64,000 nucleotides of DNA from NCBI GenBank assembly GCA_038227875.1, contig JBBRPR010000013.1:1-64000 (forward strand). Reading direction: 5' to 3'. The position numbers are program-made. Below are positions 28,301-40,300 of this stretch, one piece after another (the first letter of the stretch is position 1; every line of letters begins with the position of its first letter). This DNA comes from Planctomycetota bacterium. Lineage in GTDB: Bacteria; Planctomycetota; SZUA-567; H5-PLA8.

Positions 28301-31300
28301 CGATCGAAATCCTGCTGGATGGCGTCGACCAGATCCAGGTGAACACCAACGACATCAACGCCGTCGAGCGCGCGTATCTGCAGGTTCAGCGTTCCGATCT
28401 GGATGCGCTGGCGGTAAGCCTGCTCTGCCCGACCGCGGCCAAGGGATCGCTGGGTATCGCGCGCGGCGGACATCTGGTGTTGCAGCAGGTTCACGCCACG
28501 TCCATTGAAGATGCGCTGAAGCGTTACGAAGCGATGGTCGAAGAACCGATCCGTGATGTACTGCTGGGCGTGTGCTACCAGGAACTGGTGCCCAACGACC
28601 GTGGCGGGCGCAAGGCGGTCTATCACTTCATGAATGTATAAAATAGCTCTGCCGCAGCGAAAGCATGCGCCTCCGTCAACCGCTTCTATTCCCGGCCCGG
28701 GGTCCCAGCGGCCGGAGGCGCATGTCGTTTTTTGAGCACTGAGCACAGACACCAGAATTAAATATAATGTCAGACTTGATTTTTTCGTCTCCTATGATAA
28801 ATCATTCGTAACGAGACAATTTTACGACTTTAGAGGAGTTTAACTTTCATGGCCAACCGCACGTTCCCCACGCAGCCGAAGACGGTCAAGCCGGTGAAGA
28901 CGGCGTTCCGGGTGATCAAGACGCAGATTCCCGTGCCGGAATCGGTGCCAATCCTGGAGAGCTTGCGCGCGCACGAGCCGCTGTCGATGTCCGGTCAGCC
29001 GGCGATCCTGTGGGAGAGCGCGCAGGGCTGCGCGGTCAAAGACCGCTGGGGCAACCAGTGGCTGGATTGGTCTTCGGGCGTGCTGGTCACCAATGCCGGG
29101 CACGGCCGCAAAGAGATCGTCGATGCGATCGTGAAGCAGGCGACCTCGCCGCTGCTCCACAATTATTGCTTCCCGAACGAACCGCGCGCGGAGTTGGCGA
29201 AGTACCTGACCGAAATCGCGCCGGCCCCGCTGAAGAAGTGCTTTCTGCTCACAACCGGCGCCGAGACGACGGAGTGTGCGATCAAGCTGGCCAAGACGCA
29301 CGGATTGAAAGTGGGCGGAGCAAAGAAAGACGTGATCGTGACGTTCGAACACGCCTTTCACGGACGGACGATGGGTTCGCAGCTGGCCGGCGGCATTCCG
29401 GCGCTGAAGACCTGGATGGGCAACCGCGAGCACGGAGATTTCGTGCAGGTGCCGTTCCCGGGCGACTGGCGCTTGAAGCCCGAGCAGCAGACGTTCGCGG
29501 CCTTCGAGAAAGCGCTGGCGGCCAAGGGCGTGACGCCGGAGCACATCGCCGGCGTGATGTCCGAGACGTACCAGGGCGGCAGCGTGGGATTCCTGCCGGT
29601 GGAGTTCGCTCAGGCTCTGCGCAAGTGGACGACGCAGCACAGCATCGTGATGATCTGCGACGAAGTGCAGGCGGGCTTCGGCCGCTGCGGAACGCTCTTT
29701 GGTTTCGAACACTACGGCATCGTGCCGGATTTGATGTGCTGCGGAAAAGGCATCAGCTCATCGCTGCCGATTTCCTGCGTGCTGGGCAAGCCGGAGATCA
29801 TGGACCTCTACGGCCCCGGCGAGATGACGTCGACGCATTCCGGAAACCCGATCTGCTCCGCGGCGGCGCTGGCGAACGTGAAGCTGATCGTCAACGAAAA
29901 ACTGGCTGAGAACGCAGCGGCGCGCGGCGAGGAGATGCTGACGGGACTCGACAAGATTCGTTCGAAGCATTCCGACCGCCTGGCCGTGGTGAAGGGAAAG
30001 GGTCTGGTTGCCGGCGTGCATTGCGTCGTGAAGGGAACGACCGATCCCGATCCTGAGCTGGCGTTCAACGTGGTCGAACGGGCGATCGAGAAGGGCTTGC
30101 TGCTGTTCGGGCCGGTGGGATTCAAAGGCGGCACGATCAAGATCTGCCCGCCGCTGGTCATCACGCGCGAGCAGGTAGCGGATGGATTGGTGGCGCTGGG
30201 CGAAGCGGTCGACGAGATCACGGCGGCGAAGTAAGCAGGCGATTCGTTTGAACTCCGGGGCGCTCGGATTAAAGTCGGGCGTACTTCATCAGGAGAATCG
30301 CCGTGGCCATTACGAAAGAAGACGTCGCCAAAGTCGCCAAGCTTTCCCGCCTGTCGTTGTCGGACACGGAATTGCAGATGTACAGCGAGCAACTCGGCAA
30401 GATTCTGGGCTACGTCGAGAAGCTGAACGCGCTCGATACCTCCAAGGTCGAACCGATGATCACGGCGGCGGCGGATGGCAACGTATTTCGTCCCGACGAG
30501 GTGCGACCGGGCCTGAAACGCGAGGACGCGTTGAAGTCGGCGCCGGCTCACGACGACGAATTTTTCCGCGTACCGCCCGTGATTGAATGAGCTTAAATCG
30601 GTGCAAGAAATTAGAATAAACGCAATGGTTATTTAATTCTGTATCAACAATGAGACGTCGAATTGCGGCATCAAACCTCGACGCACACGTGATTTGCATC
30701 GGCCGTTAATCCTATCCAAATTCCATTCTTCTCAAAACGCCAGAAATCGTGCTTCCTCATAGAGAGTTCCGGCTATGGAACGATGTGATTCAACACGTGC
30801 GCACAGCGCTTGTTGCAGCGGCGAATTAGTGTCATTTTGGCCTCGCTCCAAAACCTACCCGATTGACACGCTGTCCTAATTCTGTTCATACATGCTACGT
30901 AATGAGCAAGATGGTTGCTGACTTTAGACAACCTGATCACTGAGCTCTTGTGAAGTTGAAAAAAATTTGGGATGAAGCACATGAACAACAGCTCAACCCA
31001 CAGAAAGCACAAGAGCGCCGGCTTCACGCTGGTGGAGATGCTGATGGTCCTGGGCGTGATTTCATTCCTCGCGGCGGCGTTGTTCGTCGGCACCAACAAA
31101 CTGCGCTCACGCGCACGCATGGGCGCGACGAACGTGCTGATTGAAAAAGTCCGCGACGGTCTGGAGGCGTATAAGCTTTTCTACCGCGCCTACCCCACCC
31201 CGATGCCGCGGACCGGGATGACCAACAATGAATCGCTGTACTACTACCTCACCACGTCCTTCCGCATGGCGCCCAACCTGGCCAACGGCGAAGTCGCTTC

Positions 31301-37300: not shown

Positions 37301-40300
37301 CCGGGACGCGGCAGATCTCCCAGGCCAAATGGCATTGCGAACGCTGCCAGGCTCCCGTTGACAAGGAAGGCGTCGTCAACGGCACATGCAAACTCGTAGG
37401 CGGTCAGTTGTATTGCGTGAAGTGCTTCAAGAAGCGCATCGCCACCCGCAACCTGCGCCTGACGCTGTGGGGTGTCGGCGGCGTATTGCTGGTGGGGCTG
37501 GCGGCATCGGCGGTATTTCTCACGCAGCCGTTGTTGATTCTGCTGATTCCCATCGGCGCCTTGGCGGTGCTGACCGGCATCATCGGCGGCGGCTTGGATG
37601 GTTCCGCGCGCCTGGCCTTCGTGGCGGCGGGACTGGCGGCGATCGTGGGCAGTTGCTGGGGGACCGGGCTGGTCAGCGAGCGCTCCGAATCACGGCAGGC
37701 TCAGCAGGTTCTGGAAAAACAGGCCATGCAGGTGACGGAACTGATCGAGAGCAAAAATTTCGCGCAGGCCGACGCCCGCATCGAAGCGCTCACGGCCCAG
37801 AGCAAGGACCGCACCGGCCGCTATCTCTCGCCGGAGCAGGAGAAGAAAATCGAAGCCCTGCGCGCGCAGTTCGACGCACAACTCCGCGCCAAGTACGGCG
37901 AACTGACGCCGCACGAGAACCACGTGCTGATGACCTTGATCCGCGCCTTCCCGGACGATTCCGACAACGGCGCGGAGCGGTTTCGCGCCGTTCACATGAC
38001 GGACACGAAAGTTTCCGTCACTGTCGAGAAGGCTCGCGAAATGCTGTCGGAGAAGGACATCGCCATGGGGCCGATGGGCGACCCCACCACGCTGCAGGCG
38101 CGCACACTGGCGCTGTTCCTGTTCGACAGCTATCCGTTTTTGAAGGACGTCGAGATTGAAACGCTGGGCGAAAAGTCACAGCATCTGGCGTACAACCGCG
38201 AACAGATCACGCAGTTGCGCATGGGTGGAATGACGGCGCCAGCTTCAATTCGAGAACACTGAACGCTGCGATCAAGGTGCGTCAGGCATGTCCCCGTCGC
38301 GACCGTAATTCCACGCCGTCTGTTCCCAGCCCGGCGCGGAATAGAACGTGTTGCCTTCGACGGCGAGATTCAGGACTTCTTCAACATTCTCGTTGTCGAC
38401 CAGTGCCGGGGTCTGGTGCCAGAAGCAGCGCACGATCGGCAGCCATGCTCCGGGATACCCGTGCTGCGGCGACGAGTAGGTTGTGCCGCCGTTCACATTC
38501 GTGTAACCGAGGAAGATCATGTCGGCCGGATCGAGCTGCCAGCCATCGGAATCGAAAATGTTGAACCAGCCCACCGGAAACGCGCCGTTATCGCCGGGAT
38601 AGGCCAGGCCCGTGCAGCAGATGTCGCCCTTTTCCTTCTGCCAGAATTTCGCTTCCTGCCAGGTGATGATGCCCTGGTTCGACGGCGTTGCGGGGTTCGT
38701 CCACCACTGATCGGTGAGGCCGAAGAGACTCATGTGTGAAGGACTGGGCGACGTGCCGGTAATATAACCGCTGCCAATGGCATCGTTGTACGCGGTCGGC
38801 AGTGGCGGATCGTAGGAAACGTCGTTGTACCATTCGACCAGGAAGTCTGAGGCCCAGCCGCCGTCCCACGTGTCGTTGGTCCGGTCGTAAGTCTCGCAGA
38901 TGCGGGTGCTGAATTCATACAGGTACGAGCAATTGCGCTGGGGCCGGGTGTCTCCGGGCCAGGCGGGCGCTGACGTCACGCGTTCTGCCCAGTCGTACTT
39001 ATTGTCGATGGGACTTCCCGGCTTCAGCGAATTGCCCGTGGCGTGCGACAAATCCATCGGACACACAAACAGGCGGTCGTCGTTGACATAGAGATGTGTC
39101 GGATCGGCCAGATGAGTCAAACGTTCGGGAAACGCGTTCTGCTGGCGGCCTTCGAAACTCTGGTACATCACCAACGCGGCGCCAAGTTGCTTGAGATTGT
39201 TGGCGCACTGAACTTTGCGCGACTGCGTCCGCGCTCTGGCCAGTGCCGGAATCACAAGGCTCGACAGCACAATCAGGATGACGACCACGACCAGGATCTC
39301 CAGCAGCGAAATGCCCGCTGGCCCCCGTGACGTATGACGCGCTCTTGTTTTCATGATCGATCCCACGCCCGCGATGTGCTGCCTTATAATGTATTAAAAC
39401 GCCAAACCACCCGTAGAGTCACCAGGTACAACACCTGATTGGGCAGAATAATACGACGTTTTTCGCCCAGAAGTAGCGAAATGACGGAGTTGGCCCAACT
39501 TTGCGGCGGTAGGCGCAATACCCTGTGTTTAACCTGGGCAACAATTGGTGCCCAGCAGGTAGACACGCGAAATACCAAGGTGCATTGAAGGAATCCAACT
39601 TTTCCTTCAGTTGGCGTACCATTCCAGCCGAATCTTTCGCCATGACTCCTCATTCGCTCGCCGTTTCCGGTGCGGCTCTTCTCGACGAACAGCCGCGTCG
39701 CGTCCTCCCGCGACCGTCTGAGCGTATTCTGCGCTCCGGCGCATTTTTGAGTCACGCGCGTCCGCTGCGCCTCGCCGAGTTGCTCCGGCCGTTCCTACAA
39801 TCTAAGGAGCTCAGCCCCGAAGCGTGGGTGATGAGCGCCGCGACGGAACTGGCCGCGCGGTCCGCCCGTCCGGTTCCTGCTGCCTGGTTGGAGAAGCTGG
39901 CGACTGCACTGCAGGTTTCCCCCACGTCCCTGTCGCGTCCGGATTTTGAAGCGCTGCCGAAAGCGATCTGGAACGAACCGGCGTTGCTCGGTGGTTTTCT
40001 TTCGAACGCCCGCCACCGGGCGGAGTCTGAACGCGTGGGCCGCACGGGCCGCGTCAGCGAAGGCTCGGTGTACACGCCGTCGTCGGTTGCGCGAGCCATC
40101 ATTACGGAGCTAAAGGTAGGCAACCGCCGCGTGGTCGATCCGGCCTGCGGCGCGGGTGCGTTTTTGCTCGAAGCGTTTCAGCGCGGTTATCGCCGGCGGC
40201 TGGAAGGTGGCGAAACGGCGCGCAACGCAGCGCAAGCGGTCCTTTCCAATGAGCTGACCGGGATCGACATTGACGCCAAGGCGCTGGCTGTCGCGGAATT

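Follow-up and report, generated by a model that had tools for sequence, protein, structure and literature searches.

Verru_Chthon cassette A-D (TIGR02600, TIGR02596) is a curated, uncharacterised multi-copy cassette of the PVC bacteria, in which small prepilin-type proteins are accompanied by one very large protein (TIGR02600 has a model length of 1296); our literature search gave no paper text on it. As far as the available part of the source goes, alternative sets of core minor pilins in Synechocystis were suggested or demonstrated to prime different filaments that share their machinery, and a cyanobacterial subunit in the PilX/GspK position, provided with an extra domain, was proposed to cap the pilus (PMC13759059). 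Similarly, the accessible sections of another paper describe several minor-pilin priming sets for the one type IV pilus machine of Myxococcus xanthus (PMC7541494). Large additions to single pilins are also described in excerpts of two further papers: ComZ and GspK carry theirs as an insertion within the pilin sheet, not as an appendage (PMC8179133), and in CpaL, with about 600 residues, a C-terminal strand returns to the pilin-like domain (PMC13533445).

The window, which is the whole 64,000-nucleotide stretch analysed here, comes from the genome of a sediment Planctomycetota bacterium. As the preliminary description had claimed, it contains six closely packed co-directional ORFs (30972-38262, + strand), which encode four prepilins (G, H, I and J), a large protein (K) and a membrane protein (Z); the first ORF begins at 30972, and the start given previously, 30981, corresponds to its second ATG. 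The six genes and two neighbours are as follows (a slash in a motif marks the cleavage site):

27505-28641, + strand: neighbouring HTH-T2SSE ATPase, 378 aa; T2SSE 8.4e-34, N-terminal HTH_17 1.3e-14
30972-31550, + strand: G, 192-aa prepilin; cleavage motif KSAG/FTLVE, Glu5 present
31519-32400, + strand: H, prepilin; longest ORF 293 aa, mature form 261 aa; motif RRG/FTFVE
32388-32972, + strand: I, 194-aa prepilin; motif PRG/MTLLE
32982-34103, + strand: J, 373-aa prepilin in the GspJ/PilW position; motif GRG/FTLAE
34129-36849, + strand: K, 906 aa; database form 904 aa, start 34135
36853-38262, + strand: Z, 469-aa inner-membrane protein; starts 3 nt past the K stop codon
38272-39366, - strand: prepilin-type neighbour, 364 aa, with a DUF1559 (SBP_bac_10) N-terminus; convergent with Z

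In Pfam, N_methyl was the only match on the window cassette, as stated before (5.5e-7 for G). The NCBIfam scores given earlier were reproduced as well: GspG N-terminus in G (9.4e-6), GspH N-terminus in H (1.6e-10, confined to residues 31-85), PilV and GspI in I (1.6e-7 and 1.4e-4, N-terminus only) and GspK N-terminus in K (7.2e-4). The prepilin N-terminal domain was the only NCBIfam match of J, and the sole matches of an H profile among PDB sequences were pilin N-terminal helices. The labels GspH-like, GspI-like and GspJ-like for H, I and J are thus to be read as putative, N-terminal helix matches and gene order being their whole basis. G resembles a major pilin and may link the filament to the tip complex, and the true start of H is probably the ATG near 31564. 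The HTH-T2SSE ATPase gene lies 2.3 kb upstream of G, with an aminotransferase gene in between, and no such gene was found near the other eight cassettes. The protein encoded beyond Z on the opposite strand matches the N-terminus of GspG (1.1e-7) and SBP_bac_10 (8.5e-6).

K genes occur at nine places in the genome, all with open frames and, as called in the database, 727-1090 aa long, in agreement with the earlier count. The cassettes around them are less uniform than the six-gene unit in nine copies that had been described. All nine cassettes contain H, I and J, and five a G-like gene (C13, C2b, C30, C45 and C54, with two in C54; none was found in C2a, C4, C44 and C66 by blastp at E<=1e-3). 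In two cassettes, C2a and C44, the order is I-H-J-K, with I and H swapped, and in C2a an in-frame TAG (C2:157763-157765) interrupts H within the N-terminal helix. Z-like genes accompany all nine K genes, not eight of them; the C44 copy (C44:34940-35818) is a short form of 293 aa (profile E 8e-19), which has a single TM helix as well as the C-terminal domain but is devoid of Cys and of the zinc ribbon. The K genes of C44 and C45, which had been suspected of decaying, are intact open frames and therefore show no sign of decay. Taken as a whole, the preliminary description stands for the locus, its scores and the K counts, and has to be corrected for cassette uniformity, the number of Z genes and decay. 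The most conserved cassette member is I (paralogues 48-73% identical), the divergence of J among cassettes follows that of K (rho 0.66), and no flanking gene besides the cassette members is conserved across the nine.

The leader of K, RRRG/FLLLM, lacks Glu5: all nine copies have M, V or L at position +5, where the other prepilins (G, H, I and J) have Glu. Directly ahead of K lie three or four genes for prepilins with Glu5. As had been reported, the nine K can be aligned over their whole length (33-43% identity to the first, about 84 invariant columns), and they contain blocks that are 60-76% identical across paralogues of 36-57% overall identity. The most conserved of these blocks include two [LIVM]N[LIVM]N motifs (residues 175 and 371), and the machine-linked GspK on C60 of the same genome also has two; variable loops span approximately residues 81-140, 281-360, 481-500, 621-700 and 761-880. 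K matched the NCBIfam GspK model with 19.2 bits against a cut-off of 130, at the N-terminus only (residues 19-84). It stays below the cut-offs of both GspK and Verru_Chthon_A and has no Pfam family, consistent with the claim that it belongs to no family. Weak Verru_Chthon_A matches were found in two of the nine, as claimed, but those to GspK and tapirin in fewer copies than claimed (two and one, respectively; E<=0.01). When K was aligned by hhalign with the GspK proteins of its own genome, the N-terminal helix alone was aligned (probability 30-38%), and the K profile had 0 matches among PDB sequences. Sequence by itself does not assign K to GspK.

The structural model of K, built on a deeper alignment than the earlier one (pLDDT 83.7, pTM 0.88), has an alpha1 helix at residues 18-77 and a terminal beta-strand at 892-898. 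Its best matches by VIA-align among 48,161 chains were XcpX (5vtm_X; Z-score 10.7, rmsd 3.7, 239/259 residues) and GspK (3ci0_K; Z-score 10.4, rmsd 3.9, 260/280 residues), and both alignments are spread over the model, from residue 47 or 55 to 901. ComZ came third with a Z-score of 5.5, and the remainder were pilins with Z-scores of 4.2 or less. Foldseek again gave no match at E<=0.001. The earlier model and its XcpX match were reproduced independently. The nearest named clusters in the ESM Atlas bear T2SSK, T2SSK_1st or HHH_3 (scores 0.86-0.88), which we treat as a lead only. Taken together, the distance of the two best Z-scores (10.4-10.7) from the next match (5.5) and the absence of Glu5 in 9/9 copies bear out the view of K as an enlarged GspK/XcpX: it is a structural homologue of these proteins, a greatly enlarged minor pseudopilin of their type.

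The K family is rare, as had been stated, with 104 matches in 1.84 billion representatives and K genes in 4/41 related genomes. Strong Z matches occur in the same four genomes, with Z adjacent to 15 of the 16 K genes. The order G-H-I-J-K-Z recurs in other Planctomycetota MAGs, where Z directly follows K in six of seven loci. In a tree of 65 K sequences the nine K of this genome require 9 label changes, so that none of them is sister to another, and each is nearer to a K from elsewhere. The nine K are old, diverged paralogues. Giant GspK-like proteins are, however, not special to this family: at least three other such genes are present in the genome (C2, C12 and C82).

Z begins with a disordered Pro/Ser-rich tail (residues 1-155), followed by a zinc ribbon, CxxC-x22-CxxC, at residues 162-191 (nt 37336-37425), by three predicted TM helices at approximately residues 201-275 (nt 37453-37677), and by a helical stalk and an alpha-beta-beta-alpha-beta-beta domain (residues 276-469, nt 37678-38259), which we infer to be periplasmic. 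Among 18 sequences the invariant internal residues are the four Cys and one Ala. The model has a pLDDT of 70.6, with values above 85 over most of residues 160-460, and Z has no family match in Pfam or NCBIfam.

Machine genes are numerous in the genome. We counted 24 T2SSF domain matches in about 12 genes, 9 matches to secretins and 25 to T2SSE, of which 24 exceed the cut-off, in accordance with the 24 ATPases and 9 secretins reported, and one prepilin peptidase. The C44 cassette, directly behind two GspF genes, is the only one of the nine beside platform genes; no GspF, secretin or full ATPase gene lies within about 7 kb of the other eight. A small GspK and minor pseudopilins of their own are encoded at three machine loci (C60, C111 and C108). 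Across five relatives the copy number of GspF is not coupled to that of K; where a relative has 5, 1, 0 and 0 K genes, the T2SSF matches number 11, 10, 10 and 10, respectively. Indirectly, the single platform-linked cassette, the three loci with their own GspK and the uncoupled GspF and K counts favour the earlier idea of interchangeable tips.

We are inclined to read the cassettes as coding for alternative tip or initiation complexes of a type IV filament, which may be a T2SS-like pseudopilus or a type IV pilus; we consider this reading rather probable. Most of the cassettes stand apart from machine genes, and machines are probably shared: since cassettes outnumber the machine loci without minor pilins of their own, several cassettes probably use the same machines, presumably at different times. 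As there are nine diverged tip cassettes, this suggests that one cell may be able to build filaments with nine different tips. The single prepilin peptidase would cleave K, which would then come to lie at the filament apex, its C-terminal strand closing its own pilin sheet in the manner of GspK; the I-J pair would recognise K, H would dock next, and G would bridge to a major subunit. These assembly steps are modelled on the GspIJK/XcpVWX and PilIJK complexes, as presented in the available parts of two papers (PMC13533445, PMC8179133). The roughly 600 extra residues of K would form one conserved scaffold with variable loops, and the loops a cassette-specific tip surface that may bind a substrate or a surface, or pick cargo. 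Z is a cassette-specific inner-membrane accessory, presumably with the zinc ribbon and Pro-rich tail in the cytoplasm and the helical and alpha/beta domains in the periplasm; we speculate that its task is to keep the bulky complex containing K at the platform or to bring it there, or else to signal the state of that complex to the cytoplasm.

The cassettes could instead cap short periplasmic T2SS-type pseudopili, with K variants selecting secreted proteins such as hydrolases and not serving as adhesive tips, which we hold to be possible though doubtful. The best structural matches of K are indeed T2SS XcpX and GspK, not the PilX/PilK of type IV pili, K ends with its own terminal strand as GspK does according to the source in part (PMC13533445), and the genome has canonical T2SS-like loci. 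However, the three of these noted above are already equipped with a small GspK, G, H and I, weakly matched at their N-termini, suit type IV pilus names as well as T2SS ones, and with its variable loops a cap about 890 residues long recalls the tip adhesins ComZ and CpaL in the excerpts available (PMC8179133, PMC13533445). Some cassettes have glycoside-hydrolase-like neighbours, namely a rhamnosidase gene directly behind Z in C45 and a DUF4832/GH42-like gene near C2b, but these are heterogeneous and none is conserved across cassettes, which also leaves the proposed link to glycan use weak. That every cassette has a dedicated machine, making nine or more filament systems without sharing, is distinctly unlikely in our view, even though the wealth of GspF, ATPase and secretin genes, the position of C44 and the HTH-T2SSE ATPase upstream of the window cassette would fit it. 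Eight cassettes are remote from machine genes, three machine loci have minor pseudopilins of their own, relatives that carry 5, 1 or 0 K genes differ little in GspF count, and the further giant GspK-like genes mean that tip sets outnumber the machine loci lacking one.

As to Z, it is unlikely, though somewhat less so, that it is a transmembrane signalling protein, anti-sigma-like or sensor-like, which reports the level or engagement of the K complex instead of assisting assembly or docking. Its topology (cytoplasmic zinc ribbon, one or three TM helices, periplasmic domain), the dispensability of the cytoplasmic module in the machine-linked C44 copy, a histidine kinase gene after Z in C54 and a sigma-54 activator gene adjoining the C2b cassette would agree with such a role, and Pseudomonas minor pilins are described, in the part of the paper at hand, to feed back on an adjacently encoded membrane sensor (PMC5979040). 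Nevertheless, the cassettes share no conserved sigma factor or other regulator among their neighbours, Z matches no family, and the 3-nt gap in the window suggests its co-production with K. Moreover, zinc anti-sigma domains have the motif HxxxCxxC, from which the CxxC...CxxC of Z differs. It is highly improbable that the cassettes are redundant or decaying duplicates devoid of separate functions: the stop codon in the C2a H gene, the absence of G from four cassettes and the shortened K and Z of C44 point that way, but all nine K frames are open, each paralogue is closer to the K of other genomes than to those of its own, synteny is preserved in other MAGs, and the conserved blocks of K persist amid overall divergence.

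Compared with known systems, the cassettes resemble the T2SS tip-complex sets GspH-I-J-K/XcpU-V-W-X (PDB 3CI0, 5VTM) in that prepilin genes with Glu5 precede a larger subunit without it. Nearly the whole chain of XcpX and of GspK is covered when the K model is superposed, and the two N-x-N motifs are shared with the genome's own GspK. In contrast to T2SS, K is about three times longer than the crystallised chains (727-1090 aa vs about 260-320 residues) and scores far below the curated GspK model, H, I and J are enlarged too, and the cassettes, nine in number, lie apart from machine genes; we know of no counterpart of Z in T2SS operons. That K itself supplies the terminal beta-strand is again like GspK, as the latter is described in the accessible text (PMC13533445).

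ComZ of Thermus, CpaL of the Caulobacter Tad pilus, PilB/PilC of Streptococcus sanguinis and CofB/TcpB likewise combine a pilin module with a large tip-binding part, but no known domain matches the parts added in K, and K also retains the GspK alpha-domain. The large protein of the Verru_Chthon cassette has an N-terminus resembling that of GspK, and distant giant proteins match both models; K, however, reaches 22.5 bits at best against the TIGR02600 cut-off of 332.3, with 2/9 K at E<=0.01, and G and H merely graze TIGR02596. As in Synechocystis and Myxococcus xanthus, several alternative minor-pilin sets are found in one genome. In the available portions of the literature on those sets, no Z-like partner is described, and the extra domain consists of a beta-solenoid or is supplied by PilY1 as a separate protein. 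As far as these portions go, the sets number two or three in those bacteria, in contrast to the nine found here together with other giant GspK-like genes.

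The cassette in the window consists of six open reading frames packed with overlaps or very short gaps (30972-38262, +): four prepilin-type genes, G, H, I and J; a giant GspK/XcpX-type protein, K (906 aa; 904 aa in its database form); and a 469-aa membrane protein, Z.

30972-31550, +: G, cleavage motif G↓FTLVE, Glu at +5 (fifth residue of the mature prepilin)
31519-32400, +: H, cleavage motif G↓FTFVE, Glu at +5
32388-32972, +: I, cleavage motif G↓MTLLE, Glu at +5
32982-34103, +: J, cleavage motif G↓FTLAE, Glu at +5
34129-36849, +: K, leader RRRG↓FLLLM, without Glu at +5
36853-38262, +: Z, membrane protein with a zinc ribbon, of no Pfam or NCBIfam family

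In G, H, I and J, Pfam recognized the N_methyl motif alone, and it gave no credible match for K or Z. All NCBIfam matches of the cassette were confined to the N-terminal helix and lay far under the curated cut-offs; the scores given for them in a preliminary description of this DNA were reproduced by our repeat scan. Similarly, pilin N-terminal helices were the only matches in profile searches of PDB sequences with I, J and H, and the kinship of I and J to GspI and GspJ is suggested solely by N-terminal matches and gene order. The numbers of promoter-like sites (3 vs. 2.4 expected in a consensus scan) and of terminator-like sites (15 vs. 9.0 ± 3.2 expected) were graded as chance level. None of the sequencing runs listed for this DNA was an RNA run; one DNA run covered the entire stretch and may be its source, and the others shared 5-19% of its words.

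The window K did not reach the cut-off of the GspK model of NCBIfam (NF037980; 19.2 bits vs. 130, residues 19-84 only), which was matched at E ≤ 0.01 by two of the nine K paralogues of the genome, and Pfam T2SSK did not match it at E ≤ 0.1. The K profile found no PDB sequence at E ≤ 10, and its alignment by hhalign with GspK-like proteins of the same genome was limited to the N-terminal helix (probability 30-38%). The model of Verru_Chthon cassette protein A (TIGR02600) was also matched by 2/9 K proteins at E ≤ 0.01, the best match reaching 22.5 bits vs. a cut-off of 332.3 over positions 1-58 of 1296. A kinship of K to tapirin was dropped, as one copy of nine matched (E 0.0031). The motif [LIVM]N[LIVM]N occurred twice in K, at residues 175 and 371, within its best-conserved blocks; it was also found in GspK-like proteins of the same genome, twice in the machine-linked one on contig C60 and once in that on C111. 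These motifs of K may mark helix-hairpin-helix units of the GspK alpha-domain. The start of K read RG↓F(L/I)LL, followed by M, V or L at +5, in all nine copies, with Ala at -1 in the copy on C44. According to PMC13533445, PilK/GspK homologues are invariably without Glu5, which marks the apical subunit.

The structure of K (904-aa form) was predicted by AlphaFold2 from an alignment of 65 family members (mean pLDDT 83.7, pTM 0.88). Foldseek found no match to this model in the PDB at E ≤ 0.001. When 48,161 representative chains were compared with VIA-align, XcpX (5vtm_X) came first (Z-score 10.7, rmsd 3.7, 239/259 residues) and GspK (3ci0_K) second (Z-score 10.4, rmsd 3.9, 260/280 residues), and a second fold search returned the same top two. 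ComZ, an enlarged competence pilin, was third with a Z-score of 5.5, and the remaining matches were ordinary pilins (Z-scores ≤ 4.2). The XcpX and GspK alignments were scattered over model residues 47/55 to 901. As both chains were aligned almost completely, nearly the entire GspK structure is recovered inside a protein three times larger; by chain coverage, this agrees with the initial proposal of a GspK core split by ~600 extra residues. K is thus predicted to adopt the architecture of 3CI0 chain K and 5VTM chain X, in which an alpha-domain is inserted into a pilin fold. The last strand of the model comprises residues 892-898, a conserved basic motif lies just before it, and the structural alignments extend as far as model residue 901, reaching the last residues of both chains. 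GspK itself completes its own sheet with a C-terminal strand, as described in PMC13533445.

The ~600 added residues of K matched no Pfam or NCBIfam domain and no fold beyond GspK/XcpX, in a search in which individual domains can be missed when the model is as long as 904 residues. Conserved blocks were distributed over the full length of the nine paralogues, the identity in 20-residue windows being 0.63 at 161-180, 0.76 at 361-380, 0.72 at 461-480 and 0.60 at 721-740, and were separated by stretches of low identity, rich in short indels, at about 81-140, 281-360, 481-500, 621-700 and 761-880. This distribution indicates that the additions form one conserved scaffold with variable loops rather than swapped domains. 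Five cysteine columns were present in 60-77% of the 65 family sequences, which would fit an exported protein. K is not a modular pilin in the sense of PMC8179133 (a pilin module plus an extra recognized domain not specific to pilus biology), as no recognized domain was found in its extra residues; GspK and ComZ are modular only structurally, according to the same source.

A six-frame search of the genome (9.34 Mb, 176 contigs, 88% complete) located K at nine places, on C13, C30, C66, C54, C4, C44 and C45 and twice on C2 (C2a and C2b), all nine frames being open. In a blastp comparison of the six window proteins with all ORFs of the genome of at least 80 aa, homologues of H, I, J and K were found in 9/9 cassettes, those of Z in eight, and G-like genes in five, with two of them in the C54 cassette. 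I and J preceded K in every cassette, and the order was I-H-J-K in C2a and C44. Thus, of the original view of nine copies of one six-gene cassette, the number holds and the uniformity does not. The H gene of C2a contained an in-frame TAG (C2:157763-157765) within the N-terminal helix, which could reflect a pseudogene, read-through or an assembly error. Z had been reported as missing from one cassette. A profile search with the Z alignment, which alone detected this ninth copy, corrected that count: it lies immediately 3' of K on C44 (ATG at 34940 to 35818), and its 293-aa product begins with a short Pro-rich part, has a single TM helix and the C-terminal domain, and contains no cysteine. As Z, like H, I, J and K, occurs in all nine cassettes, the constant core is composed of H, I, J, K and Z, and G is optional.

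In an alignment of 18 Z sequences (eight long forms of this genome, three database orthologues and seven from related loci), the only invariant internal residues were the four cysteines of the zinc ribbon and one Ala. The Z model (pLDDT 70.6 overall, >85 across most of 160-460) starts with a disordered part (residues 1-155) followed by a small beta-ribbon with CxxC-x22-CxxC; then come three TM helices, the last extended as a long helix, three more helices, and an alpha-beta-beta-alpha-beta-beta unit at 353-448. Since a Lys/Arg cluster immediately precedes the first TM helix and the Z of C45 has a single TM helix, we infer a cytoplasmic location for the ribbon and a periplasmic one for the C-terminal domain. 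In 14/18 sequences, the disordered tail that precedes the ribbon on the cytoplasmic side (36853-37335 in the window Z) contained a short S/T-G-R/K motif, mostly SGR plus a hydrophobic residue, which may be a linear binding motif or a chance feature of a low-complexity region.

The fold matches of Z were tied and generic: helical hairpins, the C-terminal domains of CzrB/YiiP (Z-scores 7.0-7.4) and ring-building domains of T3SS/flagella (Z-scores 5.9-6.9). No PilO, GspM or GspL chain was among the matches listed, and the PilO and T2SSM (GspM) models matched other genes of this genome and not Z. A PilY1-like role was dropped, as Z is a polytopic membrane protein and not a secreted propeller. Residues 157-469 gave no usable match in the ESM Atlas, and word-indexed homologue searches returned three and five proteins, being probably limited by low-complexity words.

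The linkage of K and Z is strong. They are 3 nt apart in the window, and overlap or are separated by 1-124 nt elsewhere; Z immediately followed K in 6/7 loci of other MAGs. Moreover, strong Z matches occurred in exactly those four of 41 genomes that bear K, in which Z adjoined 15 of the 16 K genes. The divergence between cassettes was correlated for K and Z (rho 0.53) as well as for K and J (rho 0.66), which common history by itself could explain. Prediction of a complex for the cognate pair from another locus, L023 (K 46-855 with the periplasmic part of Z, 258-445), scored 0.00 in two runs, performed without controls.

HMMER searches of 1.84 billion representatives found 104 proteins of the K family at E ≤ 0.001, many of them fragments, with 69 at ≤1e-10 and 53 at ≤1e-30. 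A word-indexed search of 5.8 billion clusters found 66, all unnamed or 'hypothetical', and those with a named source came from Planctomycetota MAGs. A pattern scan of one genome per species confirmed seven K loci in three MAGs, five of them in a single MAG. Among this genome and 40 relatives, K was present in 4/41; with this genome left out, it occurred in 3/16 genomes of the same family and in 0/24 outside it. In a FastTree tree of 65 K sequences, the nine copies of this genome required nine label changes and formed no sister pair. They are 36-57% identical among themselves, and each is closer to sequences of other origin (77% identity for C13, 83% for C45, 75% for C4). By these comparisons, the copies arose through old duplications and have been retained since.

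The weak tail of the K profile search comprised proteins of 650-1460 aa whose likeness to K was confined to the N-terminal helix, several of which matched the N-termini of both GspK and Verru_Chthon_A. Further proteins of this kind are encoded in the same genome:

C2:6055-10818: giant GspK-like gene, 1587 aa
C12:66221-70708: giant GspK-like gene, 1495 aa, with a PilM gene 6 kb upstream
C82:27283-32793: giant GspK-like gene, 1836 aa
C80:8429-10438: protein with a GspK N-terminus, 669 aa

The rest of their sequence is unrelated to the K family, and they are without Z. The ESM Atlas clusters nearest K, a lead only, were unnamed Verrucomicrobiota proteins. Taken together, the weak-tail proteins, the giants of this genome and the Atlas clusters indicate that enlarged GspK-like caps are a wider PVC theme, of which the K family is one distinct, rare branch. 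Giant GspK-like proteins seem to be common in Planctomycetota and Verrucomicrobiota, where they are annotated merely as hypothetical. A literature search found no paper on the K family, which is weak evidence that it is unpublished, as an unnamed family is beyond the reach of keywords; it also found no paper text for 'Verru_Chthon cassette'.

The genome contains 24 matches to the T2SSF domain (about 12 genes), 25 to T2SSE and nine to secretin, in addition to four PilM, two PilO and two weak GspM-like genes and one prepilin peptidase. Platform genes adjoin the C44 cassette only: two tandem GspF genes and then three small pilin-like genes (129, 195 and 151 aa) lie directly upstream of it (C44:26109-30092; L017:3110-7093), and the contig contains no ATPase gene. 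This layout may be the ancestral, machine-linked arrangement. The seven cassettes other than those of C44 and C13 are set among unrelated genes, and no flanking gene was common to more than two of the nine loci. The machine loci on C60, C111 and C108 have small GspK-like and minor pseudopilin genes of their own, and those on C37 (two), C30, C50 and C79 have no prepilin-motif ORF within 12 kb. In five relatives with 22, 11, 10, 10 and 10 T2SSF matches, there were at least one, five, one, zero and zero K genes, respectively, so the number of platforms does not track that of cassettes. These gene counts favor the use of common machines by several cassettes.

The neighbors of the cassettes included a rhamnosidase gene directly after Z on C45, a DUF4832/GH42-like gene near C2b, a DUF4185 gene near C2a, a weak GH30 match near C54 and a Laminin_G_3 gene near C4. 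Glycoside-hydrolase-like neighbors at some cassettes agree with the link to glycan use that had been drawn from the neighborhood, but the neighbors differ from cassette to cassette, and the link is weak. The surroundings in the window were as follows:

16001-20000: G+C 0.48-0.53 vs. about 0.60 in the rest of the window
20433-27014, +: upstream of the ATPase, a GntR/periplasmic-binding-type regulator, a 999-aa NHL-repeat protein and two family-less proteins (169 and 492 aa)
27505-28641, +: 378-aa T2SSE-family ATPase of unusual architecture with an N-terminal excisionase-type HTH_17, 2.3 kb upstream of the cassette; its six-frame match extends beyond the stop codon (one TAA inside the match)
39525-41570, +: Eco57I/MmeI-type DNA methyltransferase with a TaqI-like specificity domain, shortly downstream of the cassette
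57432-64000, -: very long ORF (3676 aa), which exits the window and continues to C13:68462

By analogy with GspIJK/XcpVWX and PilIJK, as treated in PMC13533445 and PMC8179133, the single peptidase would cleave all five pilin-like proteins, and K would fold with its own last strand closing its sheet. The I-J pair would then recognize K, H would dock, and G, where present, would bridge the complex to the major subunit. The complex would prime the growth of a filament, which may be a surface pilus or a periplasmic pseudopilus, and remain at the tip with the variable loops of K facing outward, so that nine sets could provide nine tip specificities. Z might retain the bulky complex in the membrane, ready for delivery to a platform, or might report on it. 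That the sole platform-linked cassette, that of C44, has lost the cytoplasmic module of Z is suggestive in this respect but proves nothing. A bolder and rather improbable extension treats the cassettes as plug-in tip modules: Z would be a new kind of adaptor that uses its cytoplasmic zinc ribbon and Pro-rich tail to dock a preassembled H-I-J-K complex, specific to the cassette, on a shared ATPase/platform, or to signal that this complex has engaged; a single cell could switch among nine or more tips of differing binding specificity, perhaps for polymer capture, and the docking module of C44 would have been lost as unneeded. The function of the cassettes is inferred throughout, which is the main weakness of this account.

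How a single type IV filament machine can perform many functions is under active study. In recent work, two or three alternative minor-pilin sets prime different filaments; this genome would raise the number to nine old, maintained sets, each equipped with a cap protein three times as large as GspK and with its own membrane partner, which belongs to no known family. The nine cassettes are a natural series for asking what the added surface of the cap binds and how a tip complex reaches a machine encoded elsewhere. They also show that heavily expanded GspK-fold proteins escape sequence models.

Minor-pilin tip complexes are of a known kind, as are enlarged cap pilins (GspK, ComZ, CpaL), and PMC13759059 already describes one machine primed by several sets. 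The Verru_Chthon A-D cassette curated by NCBIfam, which includes a giant protein, likewise occurs in multiple copies in PVC bacteria. New here are a rare and separate family of GspK-fold caps that sequence models do not see, the fixed pairing of K with a membrane protein that bears a zinc ribbon and belongs to no known family, and the presence of nine old cassettes within one genome.
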